A stretch of DNA of 60,179 bases, the filler included, from Basidiobolus ranarum (Eukaryota), in the NCBI GenBank assembly GCA_040143965.1. It is 8 parts of 8 records of this genome, joined end to end, with 100 filler letters (N's around TTAATTAATTAA, not from the genome) between each part and the next. Parts side by side here need not be neighbours in the genome. Positions count along the whole stretch, not along the records: positions 22,663 to 30,097 come from JASJQH010007994.1; 7 more parts are not named here. One strand, given 5' to 3'. The position numbers and the translations under genes are program-made. The notes beneath the pieces were generated by a model. That model did no database searches. It was not told the origin of the DNA and was given only the letters and a program-made list of their open reading frames with translations. Positions 3,983-56,090 of this stretch are shown here, one piece after another (within the stretch, counting starts at the first letter, position 1; every line of letters begins with the position of its first letter).

Positions 3983-4880
3983 ATGGCTACTTACGGCTTG
4001 AGTGATTTCAATTGCGCTAACTACCGCAAATACCGCCCGCTGTATAAAACGGACTTATATCAAGAATTATACAGATATCACGAAAAGCATGGCGGAAAAT
4101 TTGTCACCGCTTTGGACATAGGAACAGGTAAGAATCCAACCATGATAAATGTATGATGCTAGCTAAATGTAGGAACCATCATGCTACAATGCAAATACTG
4201 ATCGTGATTACTCTATCATAGGGACCGGACAAGTAGCAGTTGCATTGTCAGCTAAATTTCTGCAGGTCCACGCTATTGATCCATCATCGAAGATGCTGGA
4301 AGCAGCAGAATCTCGCGATAACATTCATTATTCCTTTGGTCAGGGAGAGGATCTATCCCAATTTGAATCGGGGACTATAGATATCATTACTGTTTCTGAG
4401 GCATTTCATTGGCTAGATCACTCTAAGTTCTTCCAAGAAATACGTAGGGTTATGGCTTCGCAAGCCACCCTGATGGTTATTGGCTATACTAATCCGACTA
4501 TTATTGAGTACCCTGAGGCAAGTAGAAAACTTCAAGCTCATGAAGAAAGAATTGCTCCACTCCATGAGAAAGGACGGAAACATTTAGCTTCGCTGTATCG
4601 AGGTATTGATATTCCATTTGCTGATGTGAGACGATCTTACTACCATCCAGCCGATCCTCAATCCATCCTACGTTCTGAAATGAATGTGGACGAATTGAGA
4701 AACTTCATGAAGACTTATGGGAGCTACAAGATCTACTGTTCAAAGTATCCCCATGAGCCTGATGTAGTAGACGCAGTTATTGAGTCTATTGTGTCGAGTG
4801 AGCAACTGAAAGACGATGACAGGTTCACTGTCTCATGGAACACAGTTGTTATCTTCGCTCAAGGGCACTTATTATCCTAA
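3983..4880 (+). CDS. Class I SAM-dependent methyltransferase, tandem paralog of the upstream gene
   Basis: Exon 1 3983-4127 (NYRKYRPLY...ALDIGTG), intron 4128-4221 at the same position as in the paralog, exon 2 TGQVA...SEAFHWLD. Confidence 0.9.
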
Positions 4881-4963
4881 ATTATTGAATATTAATAAAC
4901 TATTATACTAAATTATTGAATATTAATAAACTATTATCCTAAATTATTGAATATCAATAAACT
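4871..4963. repeat. 31-bp tandem repeat x3 covering the stop codon and AATAAA
   Basis: Unit ATTATCCTAAATTATTGAATATTAATAAACT at 4871, 4902 and 4933, with one mismatch in each of the later copies. Confidence 0.9.
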
Positions 4964-4980
4964 GTTTGCATCTAGCCTGC

Positions 4981-5097
4981 GATTACTCCACATAAAGTAA
5001 CTGTTTCCAACTTGCTTGAGATTAATCCATATGAAGTAACTGTTTCTATCTATTTTGAGATTAATCCACATAAAGTAATTGTTTCTATCCTAAGATA
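4981..5097. repeat. ~39-bp imperfect tandem repeat x3
   Basis: GATTA(A/C)TCCA(C/T)AT(A/G)AAGTAA(C/T)TGTTTC... at 4981, 5020 and 5059. Confidence 0.8.
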
Positions 5098-7477: not shown

Positions 7478-7577
7478 NNNNNNNNNNNNNNNNNNNNNNN
7501 NNNNNNNNNNNNNNNNNNNNNTTAATTAATTAANNNNNNNNNNNNNNNNNNNNNNNNNNNNNNNNNNNNNNNNNNNN
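7478..7577. other. Artificial contig spacer N44-TTAATTAATTAA-N44
   Basis: 100-bp linker with stops in all six frames, repeated identically seven times in the window. Confidence 0.98.
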
Positions 7578-15023: not shown

Positions 15024-15123
15024 NNNNNNNNNNNNNNNNNNNNNNNNNNNNNNNNNNNNNNNNNNNNTTAATTAATTAANNNNNNNNNNNNNNNNNNNNN
15101 NNNNNNNNNNNNNNNNNNNNNNN
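15024..15123. other. Artificial contig spacer
   Basis: N44-TTAATTAATTAA-N44. Confidence 0.98.
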
Positions 15124-21523: not shown

Positions 21524-21607
21524 GTGATATGATGATTGCTTTGCCGCCCCAGTCGGACTATCTTATCCATGGCGAGAATATAAGCAACAGCCAAAAATCT
21601 GAGTTCA
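21524..21607 (+). ncRNA. snR67: Box C/D snoRNA, snR67/U31-like (LSU rRNA Gm guide)
   Basis: C box ATGATGA 21529-21535. Guide TGCCGCCCCAGT 21542-21553 is antisense to LSU rRNA ACUGGGGCGGCA. D' CGGA, D box CTGA 21599-21602. Flanking intronic stem. Confidence 0.85.
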
Positions 21608-22562: not shown

Positions 22563-22662
22563 NNNNNNNNNNNNNNNNNNNNNNNNNNNNNNNNNNNNNN
22601 NNNNNNTTAATTAATTAANNNNNNNNNNNNNNNNNNNNNNNNNNNNNNNNNNNNNNNNNNNN
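22563..22662. other. Artificial contig spacer
   Basis: N44-TTAATTAATTAA-N44. Confidence 0.98.
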
Positions 22663-24230: not shown

Positions 24231-24635
24231 TTTCGCCTTTACAAAGTTTCAGGAATGAATGAATTTAGGTTGAATGTGGATGTATACAAAAATCTAACTA
24301 TATTGGAACCAAACAGACTGAATGAGCGTTAATTCTAACTCAACCACTAGCTCAGGAATTCAGGTCCTTTACGGATTTTTTTGGGTACTGTTTTGAATAT
24401 ACAACACTAAAGACGGTAAACTTCTAGTAGATATAGATTTACTAATTACTCAGAAATAAGTAAGAAATTCGAAGTCAAGTGTTGTTAGTTGTTGATTGGC
24501 AATTATGTTCTGATCTAGTTATTTCATGCGAAACTTAGACTCGCATAAAATGGTAAATTTAACTAATTTCATAAATATAGTAGAGATCCCATAACTCTGC
24601 CATATCATATAAATGAACTCATGATGACTCCTTGA

Positions 24636-24800
24636 ATCTCTGGCTTCCTACCGTTGTAGAGAATGCGCATTTAAATCTATGAATGATGATTCGAAAGAGC
24701 TCATCACAGGAGTAGGGGGCTATCAAGCTCCGAATGGTGACTGCGGTCATCACTCCCGAACCCTTCTTTACAACCTTGTTAGCACAAGGTTGTCTTTTTT
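24636..24800 (+). ncRNA. Candidate structured ncRNA, Pol III-like, family unrecognised (5' end approximate)
   Basis: TATAAAT at 24608. GNRA hairpin 24684-24706, three-way junction 24709-24756 with a cUGCGg loop, perfect 10-bp hairpin 24770-24793, then TTTTTT. Confidence 0.55.
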
Positions 24801-25115
24801 AATAACTAAGAAATCACAATAAATTGGGATTGATTAAAATAAACCCTTCACCATTAAATAAGGAATCTCGTGATTGAGTTTTTGATGAAAATATCTATTT
24901 CAATACAAGTTTTATTCAAATGGGCAGAACCCTAGGTATCTAATCAAAAGAGCATTTGATCATTCTTGACTTCCGGTCTATTCTTTTCACTTTTATTAAC
25001 TGTGTGAAGTTCCAGAATGCCTAGTGCTTAAATTTCTTTTATTTCTCTATATCATTTAAAATTACTTTGCATCTTTTGATTATTTTTATTTAATATATTA
25101 CTACCTCGAATAAGT

Positions 25116-27496
25116 ATGAAGCATCAGCCTACTTCTCCTCACACTGATTACGTTACATCGGTAAATGTCGATGAGAGACTCGGATCTAACCCTGAGGAAT
25201 CAGTCATAACAAAACGTAGAGAACCTGATACAGATGAAAGTGGAACTAATTCTAAACGTGTTAAAATCGATAAGCAACACGAAAACACGTCCATCGACTC
25301 TAATGTGGATCTTCACCTGAATGTCACCATGAGAGCCGAATTATCGTCTGATTCCAATACTGAAGATAAAACCGAAGTTGGTACGCCTTCCATGGAACAA
25401 ATCGCCTCTGAAAACTTGCTCGCTATCGAGCCAGCTATCGATACTGCATTCGAACCTACCAGACAGAGTCTTACATCGAAGCTACTAGGAGAGTTGTCCG
25501 ACGAAGAAGAAAATAGTAATCCTGACGATAGTGAGGGAGAAAGCTTTGTTGACGAAGACTGGGACGGGGGTGATCTTGATGATGCTGACCGTGAATTATT
25601 AGGCGATGATGTAGATGTTGAAGGAGATTTAGCCGATCTCCTTTACTCTGACCTCGCTCACCATGAAGGTTCGTGTAGAATATTAGGATAGATATTTATA
25701 TTTAAAAAATCTAACTATCTGAATTAGACCCTCTGGAATTTACCCTCTATACAGAAGAGGAACGGCAATCCATTCGGGCTGACGCACGACAAAAAGGTAA
25801 GTTCTACCATAAAATATTACTTTCGATCTACCCAGTTGACTCTTCGATTACGTAGGTATCGTGATGTTTATACGTGAATATGTGCTTGAGAAGAAAATAC
25901 CTGTGGCTAAACTACTAGATGTTTTCGACCAGAAATTGGTAAATTTCAAGATAAACATAGATTGAAAGCATGTGACAATAATTTCTCATCATCTCTTAAT
26001 AATAGGCCGCTAGAGCAATGGGACGCCCTATGTTGCAGCTTTTACCGCTGTTAGAACTCTTGATCAGTCGATTTTTAAGAGAGCGCCAAAGACTTCCGGA
26101 TGTTAGCACAGTTGAGGATGTTGTCCGACTTATCAAAGAATCCAAGAATATCATGATATTAACTGGTGCTGGAGTATGTACATGCGCTAGTAGATACTGT
26201 TCACGCTATCTACTGACCACAATCAAATCATTCCTCTTTTTAAGGTATCAGTTTCATGTGGCATTCCAGATTTTCGCTCGCCTGACGGAATCTATTCCCG
26301 ACTTTCTCAATACAACCTTGAGGATCCCCAAGAGATGTTTGACATCGGATACTTCAAAGACTACCCTGAAGTGTTTTACTCCTTTGCCAAAGTATTAGCT
26401 TGTTGATAACTGCGTGCTGTTGAGATATTTATTAACAGAATCTTCAATAGGAGTTGTATCCTACTAACTTTAAACCCTCTCCAACACATGCATTTGTGAA
26501 ATTAGTTGAAGAAAAGGGAAAATTACTTCGTAATTACACTCAGAATATTGATACATTAGAACAGGCTGCTGGAATACAGAAGGTTCTTCAATGCCATGGT
26601 TAGCTTCGGTGATATTTGACTGGGTATTGAACGTGGATTGTATATTTATGCATTTGTCTGTTGTTGTGTAGGCTCCTTTGCATCTGCCAGCTGTATACGT
26701 TGCCATTATCAGGTGCCTGGAAGTGCCATTGAGCAAGACATCTTCAATCAAGTAGCTGCAGTCTTCTTTTTCAATCTGATTTAGGAATGATTACTAACTT
26801 CATTGATCAACCGTAGACTATCCCACGCTGTCCTAAGTGTATAGCTGAAGATCCCAATCTAGATGATGCCATTATGAAACCAGACATTGTTTTCTTTGGT
26901 GAGAAGCTGCCAGATGCATTTGAAGAGCATCTTTTAGAGGACTCGCGCCAAATCGACTTACTCATTGTCATGGGATCTAGTCTTCGTGTAGCTCCAGTAT
27001 CTAACATCATGAGTAAGCTGGTTACTGAGACAAGCTTATCTAGCACATTGGTCTAACCTTTACTTTTCTAGGCCACATTCCACAGAATGTTCCACAAATA
27101 CTCGTTAATCGGACACCCAATACACACATCAACTTCGATATACAGTTGTTGGGAAATTGTGACTCCATTGTGACAGAGTTGGCTCGAATGCTAGATTGGG
27201 AGCTAAAGCATGATCAAATTCCTGGTGGATCCTCTGCTGCGGTACTTGACCGAGTTGAAAAGCCATACACATTCCAAGAGCCATTATATTATTTGTTCGA
27301 AGGCGCTGTATTTGACGATAAACATTTATTGGAGTTCAGCTCGGATAGTGAGGACGAGGAAACAACATCAAGGAAATCTCAGAGGCTTGCCAAGAATCAC
27401 TCCCCTAACTCTGAAACGGACCAGGGAACCAGTGAATTACCGACTACGAAGAATGGGGAATCCCAAGATTCGGCAACTCCTCAGGAAATTAATTAA
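25116..27496 (+). CDS. SIR2: NAD-dependent deacetylase, class I sirtuin (Sir2/SIRT1), multi-exon
   Basis: [44 protein letters not shown], CxxC zinc pairs, [19 protein letters not shown]. Confidence 0.95.
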
Positions 27497-27872: not shown

Positions 27873-29376
27873 TCATTTCTTTTCCTCCACTTCAGCGACA
27901 GGTTCAGCCTGAGCTTTTTCGAAGATGAAGCCAATTATTTTCAGTGCTTGTGCTCTCTTTTTAATTACATGTCTTGGGCAAGAAGGATCACCCAAAACGT
28001 TATCACAGACATCTCTCAATACTGATTCCACTTCCAGTTTGCTACCTCTCCAAAGAGCATTCAATCCTTTTTGTGCTGCTTGCTCCTCAAGTGCAGTCCT
28101 GGCTTCAGCGTCCAAACCTTTCTTGTCAGCGTCTTGGAGTTGAGTAAAAGTACTTTGCATGTCCATTGCTGATCTTAGGGTAGAATAAGTTTCACCAAGA
28201 ATATGGCTCTTCTCACGGAACTGATGGAAATAACGGCCAATTCCAAGGAATTCATCACGACCTAAGCACTGACGAGCTTTAAGGCTATATGTATAACCAA
28301 TGGCGTGAAGAAGCTCCACACCGTAAGATTCCGCTTGAAGATCGTTGGCTTCATGTTGAATGTAAGCTTTAAATTTAGCTACTGACTCTTCATCTCCTGA
28401 GGATTCAGTAAACATGGCCAATTTGTTGGTAAGATTTTCTGCCAATTTATTAACCCGTTCAGCACGAGCTTTGGAGCGTTCTTCGGATTGTTGTTCTTCC
28501 TTTGCTTTCTTTTCTTCCTCACTTAAAGCTGCTTCTTCAGATTCGGGGTTCGACTCTTGCATGGCCTCTTTAAAGTCTTGAGCAATAGAGATTTCTCCGA
28601 TCCAATCCACAAACCGATCTCCACCAAATTGCTGCTTAAAGAAATCCTGAGGATTAACTAGAATGGGGGTTAATATATCAGCAAAAAGAAGGAACATAAA
28701 TTCCACATGTTATTATCCCTTACCAAAACCACCTTCAGGAGCAATGTTATTTTGAGGTCCATACTCGTTGTATTTCTTACGAAGTACAGGGTCGGAAAGT
28801 ACTTGATAAGCTTCGGAAATCTTTTTAAACTTTTAACACAAAAAAAAGTAGGTTAAACACATGCGACTAGAGAGAAGTGAAATGAACCAAATTCCTTACC
28901 ACTTCCTCAGCATCAGCTTCTTGATTTTTATCAGGATGATACTTCATAGCCAAATTGTAATATTTCTTTTTGATCTCACCGGCAGTGGCGGTAGGGGCTA
29001 CACCAAGGATATCGTAATATTCAGTAGAGACGGGGTTATCGTCTAGTAGATCATAGTCATATACGAGTATAAAGATTAAGAAATGTAGACTTTCCAAAGA
29101 ATATTATTACCCAAAAAGATAAATACCTGTGCCTATACGCCACGAACGCTCGCTTGTGTTTCCATTACCAGTAGAGCCGGTTTTTGGAGTGTTCAAAGTA
29201 TTGTTGATATATGAAGCAGCATCTATTTCAGCAACATTATTACAAGAGAAGCATTGAACTTGAGCTTTGCCTGAGGAAGGTTGAGTGGGAAGAGAGAATT
29301 CAAATAAAGTTTGACATTTTGGACATTTGACTGTCGCATGGGCTGGTTTATGGGAGGAAATAATGGAAGCTGACAT
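27873..29376 (-). CDS. J-domain co-chaperone with DnaJ-X domain (Djp1/Caj1-like) and N-terminal zinc ribbon
   Basis: EYYDILGV...[59 protein letters not shown]-terminal CPKC...CFSC. Three introns. Confidence 0.9.
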
Positions 29377-30097: not shown

Positions 30098-30197
30098 NNN
30101 NNNNNNNNNNNNNNNNNNNNNNNNNNNNNNNNNNNNNNNNNTTAATTAATTAANNNNNNNNNNNNNNNNNNNNNNNNNNNNNNNNNNNNNNNNNNNN
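30098..30197. other. Artificial contig spacer
   Basis: N44-TTAATTAATTAA-N44. Confidence 0.98.
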
Positions 30198-37626: not shown

Positions 37627-37726
37627 NNNNNNNNNNNNNNNNNNNNNNNNNNNNNNNNNNNNNNNNNNNNTTAATTAATTAANNNNNNNNNNNNNNNNNN
37701 NNNNNNNNNNNNNNNNNNNNNNNNNN
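37627..37726. other. Artificial contig spacer
   Basis: N44-TTAATTAATTAA-N44. Confidence 0.98.
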
Positions 37727-45149: not shown

Positions 45150-45249
45150 NNNNNNNNNNNNNNNNNNNNNNNNNNNNNNNNNNNNNNNNNNNNTTAATTA
45201 ATTAANNNNNNNNNNNNNNNNNNNNNNNNNNNNNNNNNNNNNNNNNNNN
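45150..45249. other. Artificial contig spacer
   Basis: N44-TTAATTAATTAA-N44. Confidence 0.98.
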
Positions 45250-45816
45250 TGCTTCTTGTGAAAGGCAAGGATAGCTTGTGGTGGTCCCTTTGGCTCTATT
45301 TCTTCTCCTGTAACAAATCCCCAAAGGTCCTTGTTTTCTAGCACCATTTGCATCTTGAACTTCCAAAGGTGAAAGTCTTCTCCATCAAACTTCTCTGTGC
45401 ATGCAAAAACGTTGGTAATAGTACTGGTAGCCATTCCTTTGACAGCTAGCTTGGGGCTCATAACCTGATAGAAGTGCTTAGGGGATTTGGAAGTGTTTTG
45501 GACAAGATTTGGATATATGAATTAGACACTTAAGTTTTATTAAATTGAATATGTCCTATTTATAGTTTACTATGAAATGGGACTATTGGACATGCTTAGA
45601 TCATAACAGACATGCCTGTTAAGCATGGGTGAAAATTTGAGGTGATTTGGGGAAGTTTTGTAAAAATAGTGAAAATTGGTAAAAGTGATCTAATTGATAT
45701 TTCTATCAATTAGAGCAATAAACACATGTTTTTGAATGACAGAATTGAGTACTAAATAATCAGAATATGAATGAACTAACTACTAAATAATGAGTTGCTA
45801 TTTGCCTAATTCAACA
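45250..45816 (-). mobile_element. Ty1/copia element copy A: 5' LTR (45816-45466), PBS (45465-45454), gag start (truncated)
   Basis: LTR TGTTGA...TATCA, PBS GGTTATGAGCCC, gag EKFDGEDFHLWKFKMQMVLE. Confidence 0.9.
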
Positions 45817-52665: not shown

Positions 52666-52765
52666 NNNNNNNNNNNNNNNNNNNNNNNNNNNNNNNNNNN
52701 NNNNNNNNNTTAATTAATTAANNNNNNNNNNNNNNNNNNNNNNNNNNNNNNNNNNNNNNNNNNNN
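52666..52765. other. Artificial contig spacer
   Basis: N44-TTAATTAATTAA-N44. Confidence 0.98.
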
Positions 52766-55748: not shown

Positions 55749-56090
55749 ATGCGTTTCGTTCTTGCTTTATTAGTTGTTTTGTGCGCAATTTTCTCAACAA
55801 TTGCTGCACCATTACCACTGAATGCAGTGGTAAATATCGACACTGGGTCTACTAGTCCATCATCCACTCCCGGTAGTTGTGACGATGTTAATGCCAAGAT
55901 TAAGGTTTTGGGTGAGAATATCGCCGCTGTTGTGTGCCTTAAAGGTGACCAAGAATTACCTACTGGTATGGTACCAAACTCAAGCACAGAATGTCCAGAT
56001 CTCGAAGCACGTATTACCGCCTTAGGATTAAATATTCGTGCAATTGTATGTCTTCATGATGGCATCAAGATTGCAGTTAATGTTCAGTAA
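55749..56090 (+). CDS. Small secreted protein with two Cys-bounded internal repeats
   Basis: TATAAATA at 55681, signal peptide, repeats CDDVNAKIKVLGENIAAVVCL and CPDLEARITALGLNIRAIVCL, AATAAA ~56146. Confidence 0.8.
   Translation: MRFVLALLVVLCAIFSTIAAPLPLNAVVNIDTGSTSPSSTPGSCDDVNAKIKVLGENIAAVVCLKGDQELPTGMVPNSSTECPDLEARITALGLNIRAIVCLHDGIKIAVNVQ

Follow-up and report, generated by a model that had tools for sequence, protein, structure and literature searches.

A candidate structured small RNA gene in the divergent derlin-SIR2 intergenic region of Basidiobolus ranarum

Between the divergent genes for a derlin and a SIR2 protein in the fungus Basidiobolus ranarum lies a short G+C-rich stretch that is predicted to fold into a compact array of hairpins. 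The question it raises is whether this is the gene of a small RNA, promoter DNA serving the two neighbours, part of a longer transcript, or a relative or relic of something already described. [quoted passage not shown] Here we present a computational analysis of the locus in its window, by which we mean the whole stretch of 60,179 nucleotides that was analysed. The reading that we prefer, tentatively and as possible rather than probable, is that the + strand carries an unannotated gene of its own for a small non-coding RNA outside all described families, perhaps transcribed by Pol III.

Setting and anatomy of the element

The window is made up of eight unrelated contigs of ~7.4 kb in descending order of length, joined by spacers of the form N44-TTAATTAATTAA-N44 (7478-7577, 15024-15123, 22563-22662, 30098-30197, 37627-37726, 45150-45249 and 52666-52765), and the true context of the candidate is only the contig at 22663-30097 (7435 bases). 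There, as had been proposed, it lies between two divergent genes that could both be placed: derlin (Pfam DER1), on the minus strand with its ATG at ~24230 and the N-terminus MAIPLETWYLDIPVVTR, and SIR2, on the plus strand, annotated as protein P0121 of 622 aa with its start at 25116. The candidate sits mid-way in the 886-bp gap and, given these two positions, is claimed by neither gene. Further along the contig is a DnaJ-X exon (27873-28703, minus strand), which matches a B. ranarum protein at NCBI with 100% identity and has relatives at 75-83% identity in B. ranarum and B. meristosporus. Elsewhere in the window, 4870-5089 holds adjacent tandem arrays of a 31-nt unit (three copies, 95% matches) and a 39-nt unit (3.3 copies, 82%).

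The initial annotation had listed a TATA-like box, a series of hairpins, a three-way junction, a pyrimidine-rich linker and a T run, and all of these were recovered where it had placed them. They lie in or next to an island of raised G+C at 24616-24794, common to both strands, that has the first and the last helix at its two edges. Its G+C is 45.8%, against 29.2% in 24400-24615 and 26.8% in 24795-25115, a value that is matched by just 7.5% of the 179-nt windows in the 60 kb and that exceeds the neighbouring exons (41-44%). Upstream of the island on the + strand are a motif resembling an upstream or proximal sequence element (USE/PSE), GATCCCATAACTC at 24585-24597, recognised by consensus match and with the core ATCCCATAA at 24586-24594, and a putative TATA box, TATAAAT at 24608-24614, which begins 13 nt past CCCATAA.

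Read from 5' to 3' on the + strand, the island opens with a 5' domain (24622-24706), in which the predicted fold pairs 24622-24640 with 24688-24706 in a long-range stem that encloses two small hairpins. The GNRA hairpin previously described for this part, UGAUGAUUC[GAAA]GAGcUCAUCA (that is, UGAUGA-UUC[GAAA]GAG-c-UCAUCA), is present as sequence at 24684-24706, but the energy minimum forms the long-range stem in its place, and the local hairpin forms when the 5' arm 24622-24634 is absent. In the folding model the two are thus alternatives, in competition with each other. The suggestion that a repeated UCAUCA permits an alternative fold was borne out in extended form, in that UCAUCAC is present twice (24701-07 and 24747-53), AUGAUGA is likewise present twice (24621-27 and 24683-89), and two competing 5' folds are predicted.

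The 5' domain is followed by the three-way junction at 24709-24756, with a closing helix GGAGU/ACUCC (24709-13/24752-56), two G-U pairs, and the arms GGGGCU[AUCA]AGCUCC (24716-31) and GGUGAC[UGCG]GUCAUC (24736-51), the latter capped by a C(UGCG)G loop. A pyrimidine-rich linker, CGAACCCUUCUUU (24757-24769), is predicted to be single-stranded and leads to a perfect 10-bp terminal hairpin with the loop UAGC (24770-24793). A T6 run at 24795-24800, a putative Pol III terminator, closes the element.

RNA structure or promoter DNA

Set against shuffled sequence, as the initial annotation had suggested, 24620-24800 proved stable: at -58.1 kcal/mol its z-score is -3.34, and of 200 shuffles a single one did as well. 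The contig was scanned on both strands in 162 windows of 180 nt, each compared with 25 dinucleotide shuffles; the three most negative z-scores, -4.16, -3.67 and -3.45, all lie within 24373-24912, as do 7 of the 12 lowest. This concentration of the top three of 162 windows at the locus, together with a sharp-edged 179-nt island of exon-level G+C that exceeds the needs of binding sites, argues against the rival that survives best, namely that there is no RNA gene here at all. The stretch would then be non-transcribed bidirectional promoter DNA of derlin and SIR2, its palindromes would be protein sites or chance, and its TATAAAT would serve SIR2 or nothing. We regard this as unlikely, with a real chance all the same of being right, and the position of the stretch mid-way between divergent genes is in its favour.

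The comparison of strands bears on both readings. It had been argued that the G-U wobbles and both special tetraloops work on the + strand only, and a + strand preference was found for the junction but not for the region as a whole. On the + strand the junction (24709-24756) folds at -20.9 kcal/mol (z -3.41) and accounts for 54% of the ensemble; over the same interval the minus strand reaches -13.9 kcal/mol (z -1.83) and forms no junction, because the two G-U pairs turn into C-A mismatches. The junction therefore counts against promoter DNA. By contrast, the overall fold of the minus strand is equally good (-56.3 kcal/mol, z -3.59 over 181 nt, against -58.1 kcal/mol on +), and the z-scores for a 286-nt region are -3.93 (+) and -3.40 (minus), which favours the promoter-DNA reading. 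The 5' domain behaves in the same way (-23.1 kcal/mol, z -3.01 on +; -22.2 kcal/mol, z -2.48 on minus). The terminal hairpin, being a perfect DNA palindrome, has the same stability on either strand (z -4.96 on +, -4.98 on minus), again to the credit of the promoter-DNA reading. The GAAA and C(UGCG)G loops we take, from established knowledge of GNRA and UNCG loops, to be special on the + strand only. The + strand evidence is thus real but thin.

The terminal hairpin has the longest stem (10 pairs) among the five terminator-like sites of the contig, for which the chance expectation is 4.5. Perfect hairpins of at least 10 bp are represented by three distinct cases in 60 kb (4 raw hits, against 0.73 per shuffle); one of them is pure A/T, and of the other two only that at 24770-24793 is trailed by a T run. 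Two other perfect hairpins of the window, one of 11 bp with a loop of 4, TCTAATTGATA / TATCAATTAGA (45689-45714), and one of 9 bp, TTACCACTG / CAGTGGTAA (55812-55833), have no T run after them.

A separate 12-bp hairpin with two G-U pairs lies at about 24518-24553, ~290 nt upstream of the derlin ATG, with CCAUUUUAUG preceding it on the minus strand. The minus strand gives it clearly the greater stability (-12.5 kcal/mol, z -5.08, against -8.0 kcal/mol on plus). It probably belongs to something other than the candidate, and might be part of a derlin leader or a feature in its own right. As a neighbour that favours the opposite strand, it adds to the case for promoter DNA.

What can be said of transcription depends on the motifs around the island. 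External promoters of the USE plus TATA type are textbook in plants, ciliates and animals but not in fungi, and fungal Pol III genes are known to rely on internal boxes; in the literature on SNAPc or type-3 promoters in fungi we found nothing on point. The core ATCCCATAA fits two of the eight USE consensuses in Table 1 of PMC8287931, RTCCCWTA (Stentor) and CCCRTAA (Ostreococcus), both given there for type-3 snRNA promoters, and it matches 7 of 8 positions of the Auxenochlorella consensus ACCCATAA from the same source; these three lineages all lie outside Opisthokonta. The octamer TCCCATAA occurs 6 times in the window where 3.2 are expected and is not, on its own, enriched. As a composite, CCCATAA-N5-35-TATAWAW is found a single time, at this locus, where 0.16 would be expected, and 13 of 100 shuffles contain one or more. 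The gap between USE and TATA in Arabidopsis is 23-24 bp in Pol III genes and 32-34 bp in Pol II genes (PMC8287931), and that of the candidate is 13 nt. The core also falls within the loop of a weak hairpin (24560-24616, + z -2.18) formed by the imperfect inverted repeat GTAGAG / CTCTGC at 24575-24605; instead of acting in a promoter, the USE-like motif might belong to this hairpin.

The remaining two motifs are common in this A+T-rich window, and the promoter-DNA reading gains by it. TATAAAT is present in 27 copies (both strands counted), and T runs of at least 6 number 70 on both strands, or 1.18 per kb. A T run of at least 4 follows within 400 nt downstream at 25 of the 27 TATAAAT sites, and in 6 of these 25, the candidate included, the first such run comes at 150-300 nt. 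As TATAAAT and T6 are so common, their succession alone weighs little. The T6 at 24795-24800 is nonetheless placed as an oligo-T terminator without internal T4+ should be, being the first + strand run of at least four T after 24500.

The TATA box and the fold make conflicting demands on the start site. A start ~27 nt past TATAAAT (A24635) drops 24622-24634, the 5' arm of the strongest helix in the 5' domain. With a start near 24635, the local GNRA hairpin forms, the 5' half is like shuffles (z -0.95), and the z-score of the whole RNA falls to -2.92. The island and the long-range stem begin at 24616-24622, just 8-14 nt past the TATA box. One of three things must hold: TATAAAT is not the -30 element of this gene, the long-range stem is unreal, or the folds alternate. 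The last is offered because the copies of AUGAUGA at 24621 and 24683 compete for GAGcUCAUCA.

Coding potential and the SIR2 transcript

The longest ATG-initiated ORF over the candidate is 47 aa (24679-24822), and a phmmer search of it against 1.84 billion representative proteins found no convincing homologue; the two matches, at E ~2e-4, were both to internally repetitive proteins, over three and five stretches. Five stop-free frames of 25 aa or more overlap 24520-24810; all of them except one of 26 aa (24514-24594) were compared with Pfam, which gave 0 matches at E up to 1. Two frames are open across the island, one on the + strand (24628-24822) and one on the minus strand (24619-24798), and their codon-usage log-odds are +0.048 and -0.027 bits per codon, respectively, the corresponding values being 0.196 +/- 0.116 in coding chunks and 0.042 +/- 0.09 in other open frames. 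The score, derived from those open frames of the window that reach 150 codons (23 in number), is weak at 60 codons; the + frame value of 0.048 is within the lower tail of the coding chunks (above their 5th percentile, about 0). The ORF, phmmer, Pfam and codon lines all point the same way, away from a coding role. Taken as a whole, the element looks functional and non-coding.

These results bear on the next rival, that the stretch is part of a Pol II transcript, whether as a long structured leader of the SIR2 mRNA, as its non-coding first exon, as a promoter-upstream transcript, or as a short coding exon or micro-protein missing from the annotation. The stretch has the orientation of SIR2, lies 316 nt upstream of the SIR2 ATG with a TATA box in front, has exon-like G+C, and is crossed by the two open frames just described. 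Two SIR2 introns were mapped by tblastn, with approximate boundaries, at 25668-25726 and 25799-25854; their 5' ends are seemingly GTTCGT and GTTCTA, and AAG/GTTGTC at 24786-24794 of the candidate resembles such GTT-type starts. These introns are, however, 56-59 nt long, and roughly 300 nt would be required here. As a leader the stretch would also be poor, since eight ATGs lie between 24613 and 24734, and with their short ORFs they would block scanning. Furthermore, the SIR2 frame is open for just 36 nt upstream of its ATG, the annotated SIR2 protein begins at 25116, and a coding role is opposed by the lack of any protein homologue, Pfam match or codon bias. On balance we consider membership in a Pol II transcript distinctly unlikely.

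Copies, known RNA families and a possible Pol III transcript

A dispersed origin was the other concern raised at the outset, in the form of a high-copy SINE or MITE fragment. Within the 60 kb, that is, across eight unrelated contigs, no second copy was found by blastn or by a single-sequence covariance model (R1), whose next-best score, 13.8 bits, was the candidate's own opposite strand; at the scale of the window the element is single-copy. Beyond the window, a 26-nt pattern from the junction had 0 exact matches in a metagenome collection, and 185,579 prokaryote genomes contained no exact match to a 27-nt junction segment (24715-24741). The derlin exon was found at four metagenome loci, at 51-71% protein identity; these had no SIR2 or DnaJ nearby and no similarity to the candidate RNA by blastn, nhmmer or the covariance model.

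Known families were sought with Rfam 15 (4227 models), the gathering cut-off of each family being the criterion. No match reached it in the whole window, so the claim that the candidate belongs to no known family is upheld, and ARAGORN found 0 tRNAs. The window thus contains no recognised snRNA gene of Basidiobolus, and the consensuses that ATCCCATAA fits are those of other lineages only. Permissive searches of 24400-24950 (551 nt) and 24596-24812 (217 nt) returned only noise, at 10.9-18.2 bits against cut-offs of 36-120.

We accordingly think an origin from a dispersed element improbable, whether as a copy or as a relic (SINE-like, or a piece of a MITE), and likewise a pseudogene, now decayed, of a small RNA already known. 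B-box-like sequences can be picked out by eye, TTCGAATC on the minus strand (24688-24695) and GGTTCGGG (24755-24762), and the terminal loop region GUUAGCAC may resemble the AGC-triad segment of U6atac. Against these hints stand the single copy in 60 kb, the empty ARAGORN and Rfam results, edges of the island that by eye show neither terminal inverted repeats nor target duplications, and the fact that the element sits in a short-contig assembly without breaking the contig.

Most of the sub-threshold Rfam noise at the locus came from models of C/D snoRNAs, drawn by the UGAUGA repeats. Like box C/D snoRNAs, the candidate has two RUGAUGA-like boxes per strand, and its weak alignments were to SNORD25, ceN70, snR75 and Afu_294 (10.9-16 bits, against cut-offs of 39-65 bits). 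A box C/D snoRNA was nevertheless rejected: C-like boxes are present, but CUGA (box D) is absent from both strands of 24616-24800. Other contigs of the window carry two sub-threshold sites on the + strand, one matching SNORD126 at 2340-2407 (28.3 bits, E 0.12, cut-off 55) and one matching snR67 at 21525-21604 (27.9 bits, E 0.14, cut-off 55), and these could be real divergent snoRNAs. As for H/ACA snoRNAs, inspection by eye found that ACAGGA fits box H, but that ACA falls 13 nt past the second domain and not 3 nt from the end. The same kind of inspection did not recognise a k-turn, a hammerhead, an SRP Alu domain or the CR-I of RNase P/MRP.

At the locus, the models for major and minor snRNAs, 7SK, SRP, RNase P/MRP and telomerase RNA gave no match at E up to 10. 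U6atac was set aside despite GUUAGCAC, as its context is unfit and its model is without a match. U4atac was considered on the minus strand, where GUGCUAAC is present, but by eye neither a 5' stem-loop nor a stem II region lies upstream. More generally, the minor snRNAs U11, U12, U4atac and U6atac had no covariance match, and inspection by eye revealed no Sm site and no box for pairing with a 5' splice site or branch site. This negative carries weight in Basidiobolus, a genus with an unusual wealth of minor introns (PMC10639083). Its U4atac is reported to be detectable only at lowered confidence (PMC11347168), which gives some room to a divergent relative that models would miss.

The search for a telomerase template found, on either strand, no permutation of CCCTAA, CCCTAAA, CCCCAA, CCTAA or CCCTTA plus one base. 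The window contains no telomeric arrays that would define the Basidiobolus repeat, and no publication on Basidiobolus telomeres was found by title or abstract opening. The sequence CCCGAACCC (24755-63) would correspond to a TTCGGG telomere, a type that is not known to occur.

The weakest of the rivals, a very divergent member of a type-3-promoter family (U4atac, a 7SK-like RNA or a short Pol III telomerase RNA) overlooked by the covariance models, can point to a promoter type, a size and a 3' hairpin with U tail as in ciliate telomerase RNA and 7SK, and to CCCGAACCC as a 1.5-repeat of a 6-mer beside a helix, but is highly improbable given models of U4atac, U6atac, U11, U12, 7SK and telomerase RNA without a match at E up to 10 over 217 nt, no Sm site or k-turn by eye, no common telomere motif plus one base on either strand, and a window without telomeric arrays.

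We return, then, to an independent small RNA gene and to what it would resemble. Like the type-3 Pol III genes (U6, U6atac, 7SK, MRP, and plant and ciliate telomerase RNA), the candidate has a CCCATAA-type element, a TATA box and an oligo-T run, and as a compact structured RNA of a predicted ~160-185 nt it is of similar size to their products; it has no match in sequence or structure to U6, U6atac, 7SK, MRP or telomerase RNA, and its USE-TATA gap is 13 nt rather than 23-24 bp. The terminal hairpin followed by a U run we take to be a likeness to LARP7/La substrates such as the 3' hairpin of 7SK and stem IV of Tetrahymena telomerase RNA. As in these substrates, the hairpin is directly before the U run and a single-stranded, pyrimidine-rich linker lies ahead of it, but there is no match to the 7SK model and no template for a common telomere motif.

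A second likeness is to bacterial riboswitches and attenuators, with which the candidate shares a junction, duplicated segments with alternative folds, and a terminator-like hairpin with T6, as well as a placement upstream of, and co-oriented with, the gene of an NAD-dependent enzyme. The best weak + strand Rfam match over the hairpin was indeed to a Bacillus sRNA terminator (15.6 bits). Unlike a bacterial riboswitch, the candidate lies in a eukaryotic nuclear setting among genes with introns, and no riboswitch model matched it. Intrinsic terminators are inactive on Pol II.

In the working that we propose for the small RNA gene, an snRNA-type promoter made up of the ATCCCATAA element and TATAAAT would direct transcription, probably by RNA polymerase III. 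The transcript would start between ~24617 and 24636 and stop in T6, yielding an RNA of roughly 160-185 nt. Its 3' end would be shielded by the perfect hairpin and the U tail, as in Pol III RNAs bound by La, LARP7 or Lsm proteins; the three-way junction with its stable tetraloops may be a protein-binding platform; and the duplicates of AUGAUGA and UCAUCAC would give the 5' half two mutually exclusive folds. The candidate is well-formed, and the Pol III reading is plausible, resting as it does on common motifs plus one suggestive USE match.

A more far-reaching proposal is that this is the first of a lineage-specific family of small RNAs under a plant- or ciliate-style type-3 promoter in a fungus, a new RNP scaffold of 160-185 nt with a 3' end of the LARP7/La type. 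We put it forward as a speculation that is unlikely to hold. In its boldest form, CCCGAACCC would be the template of a short telomerase RNA made by Pol III in a member of Opisthokonta.

Should the locus turn out not to be expressed, it would amount to no more than a structured island of raised G+C within a bidirectional promoter. If the RNA proves real, an unclassified small RNA would be added to a poorly studied, minor-intron-rich fungal lineage, and its promoter would be weightier than the RNA itself, external USE plus TATA promoters not being textbook for fungi. If the promoter reading is true, early-diverging fungi would have retained SNAPc-type external Pol III promoters that yeasts have lost. 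Discovery of RNAs from their promoter elements is the strategy of PMC8287931, and the same USE upstream of the snRNA genes of Basidiobolus would help to uncover hidden RNAs, such as telomerase RNA and U4atac, in early-diverging fungi.
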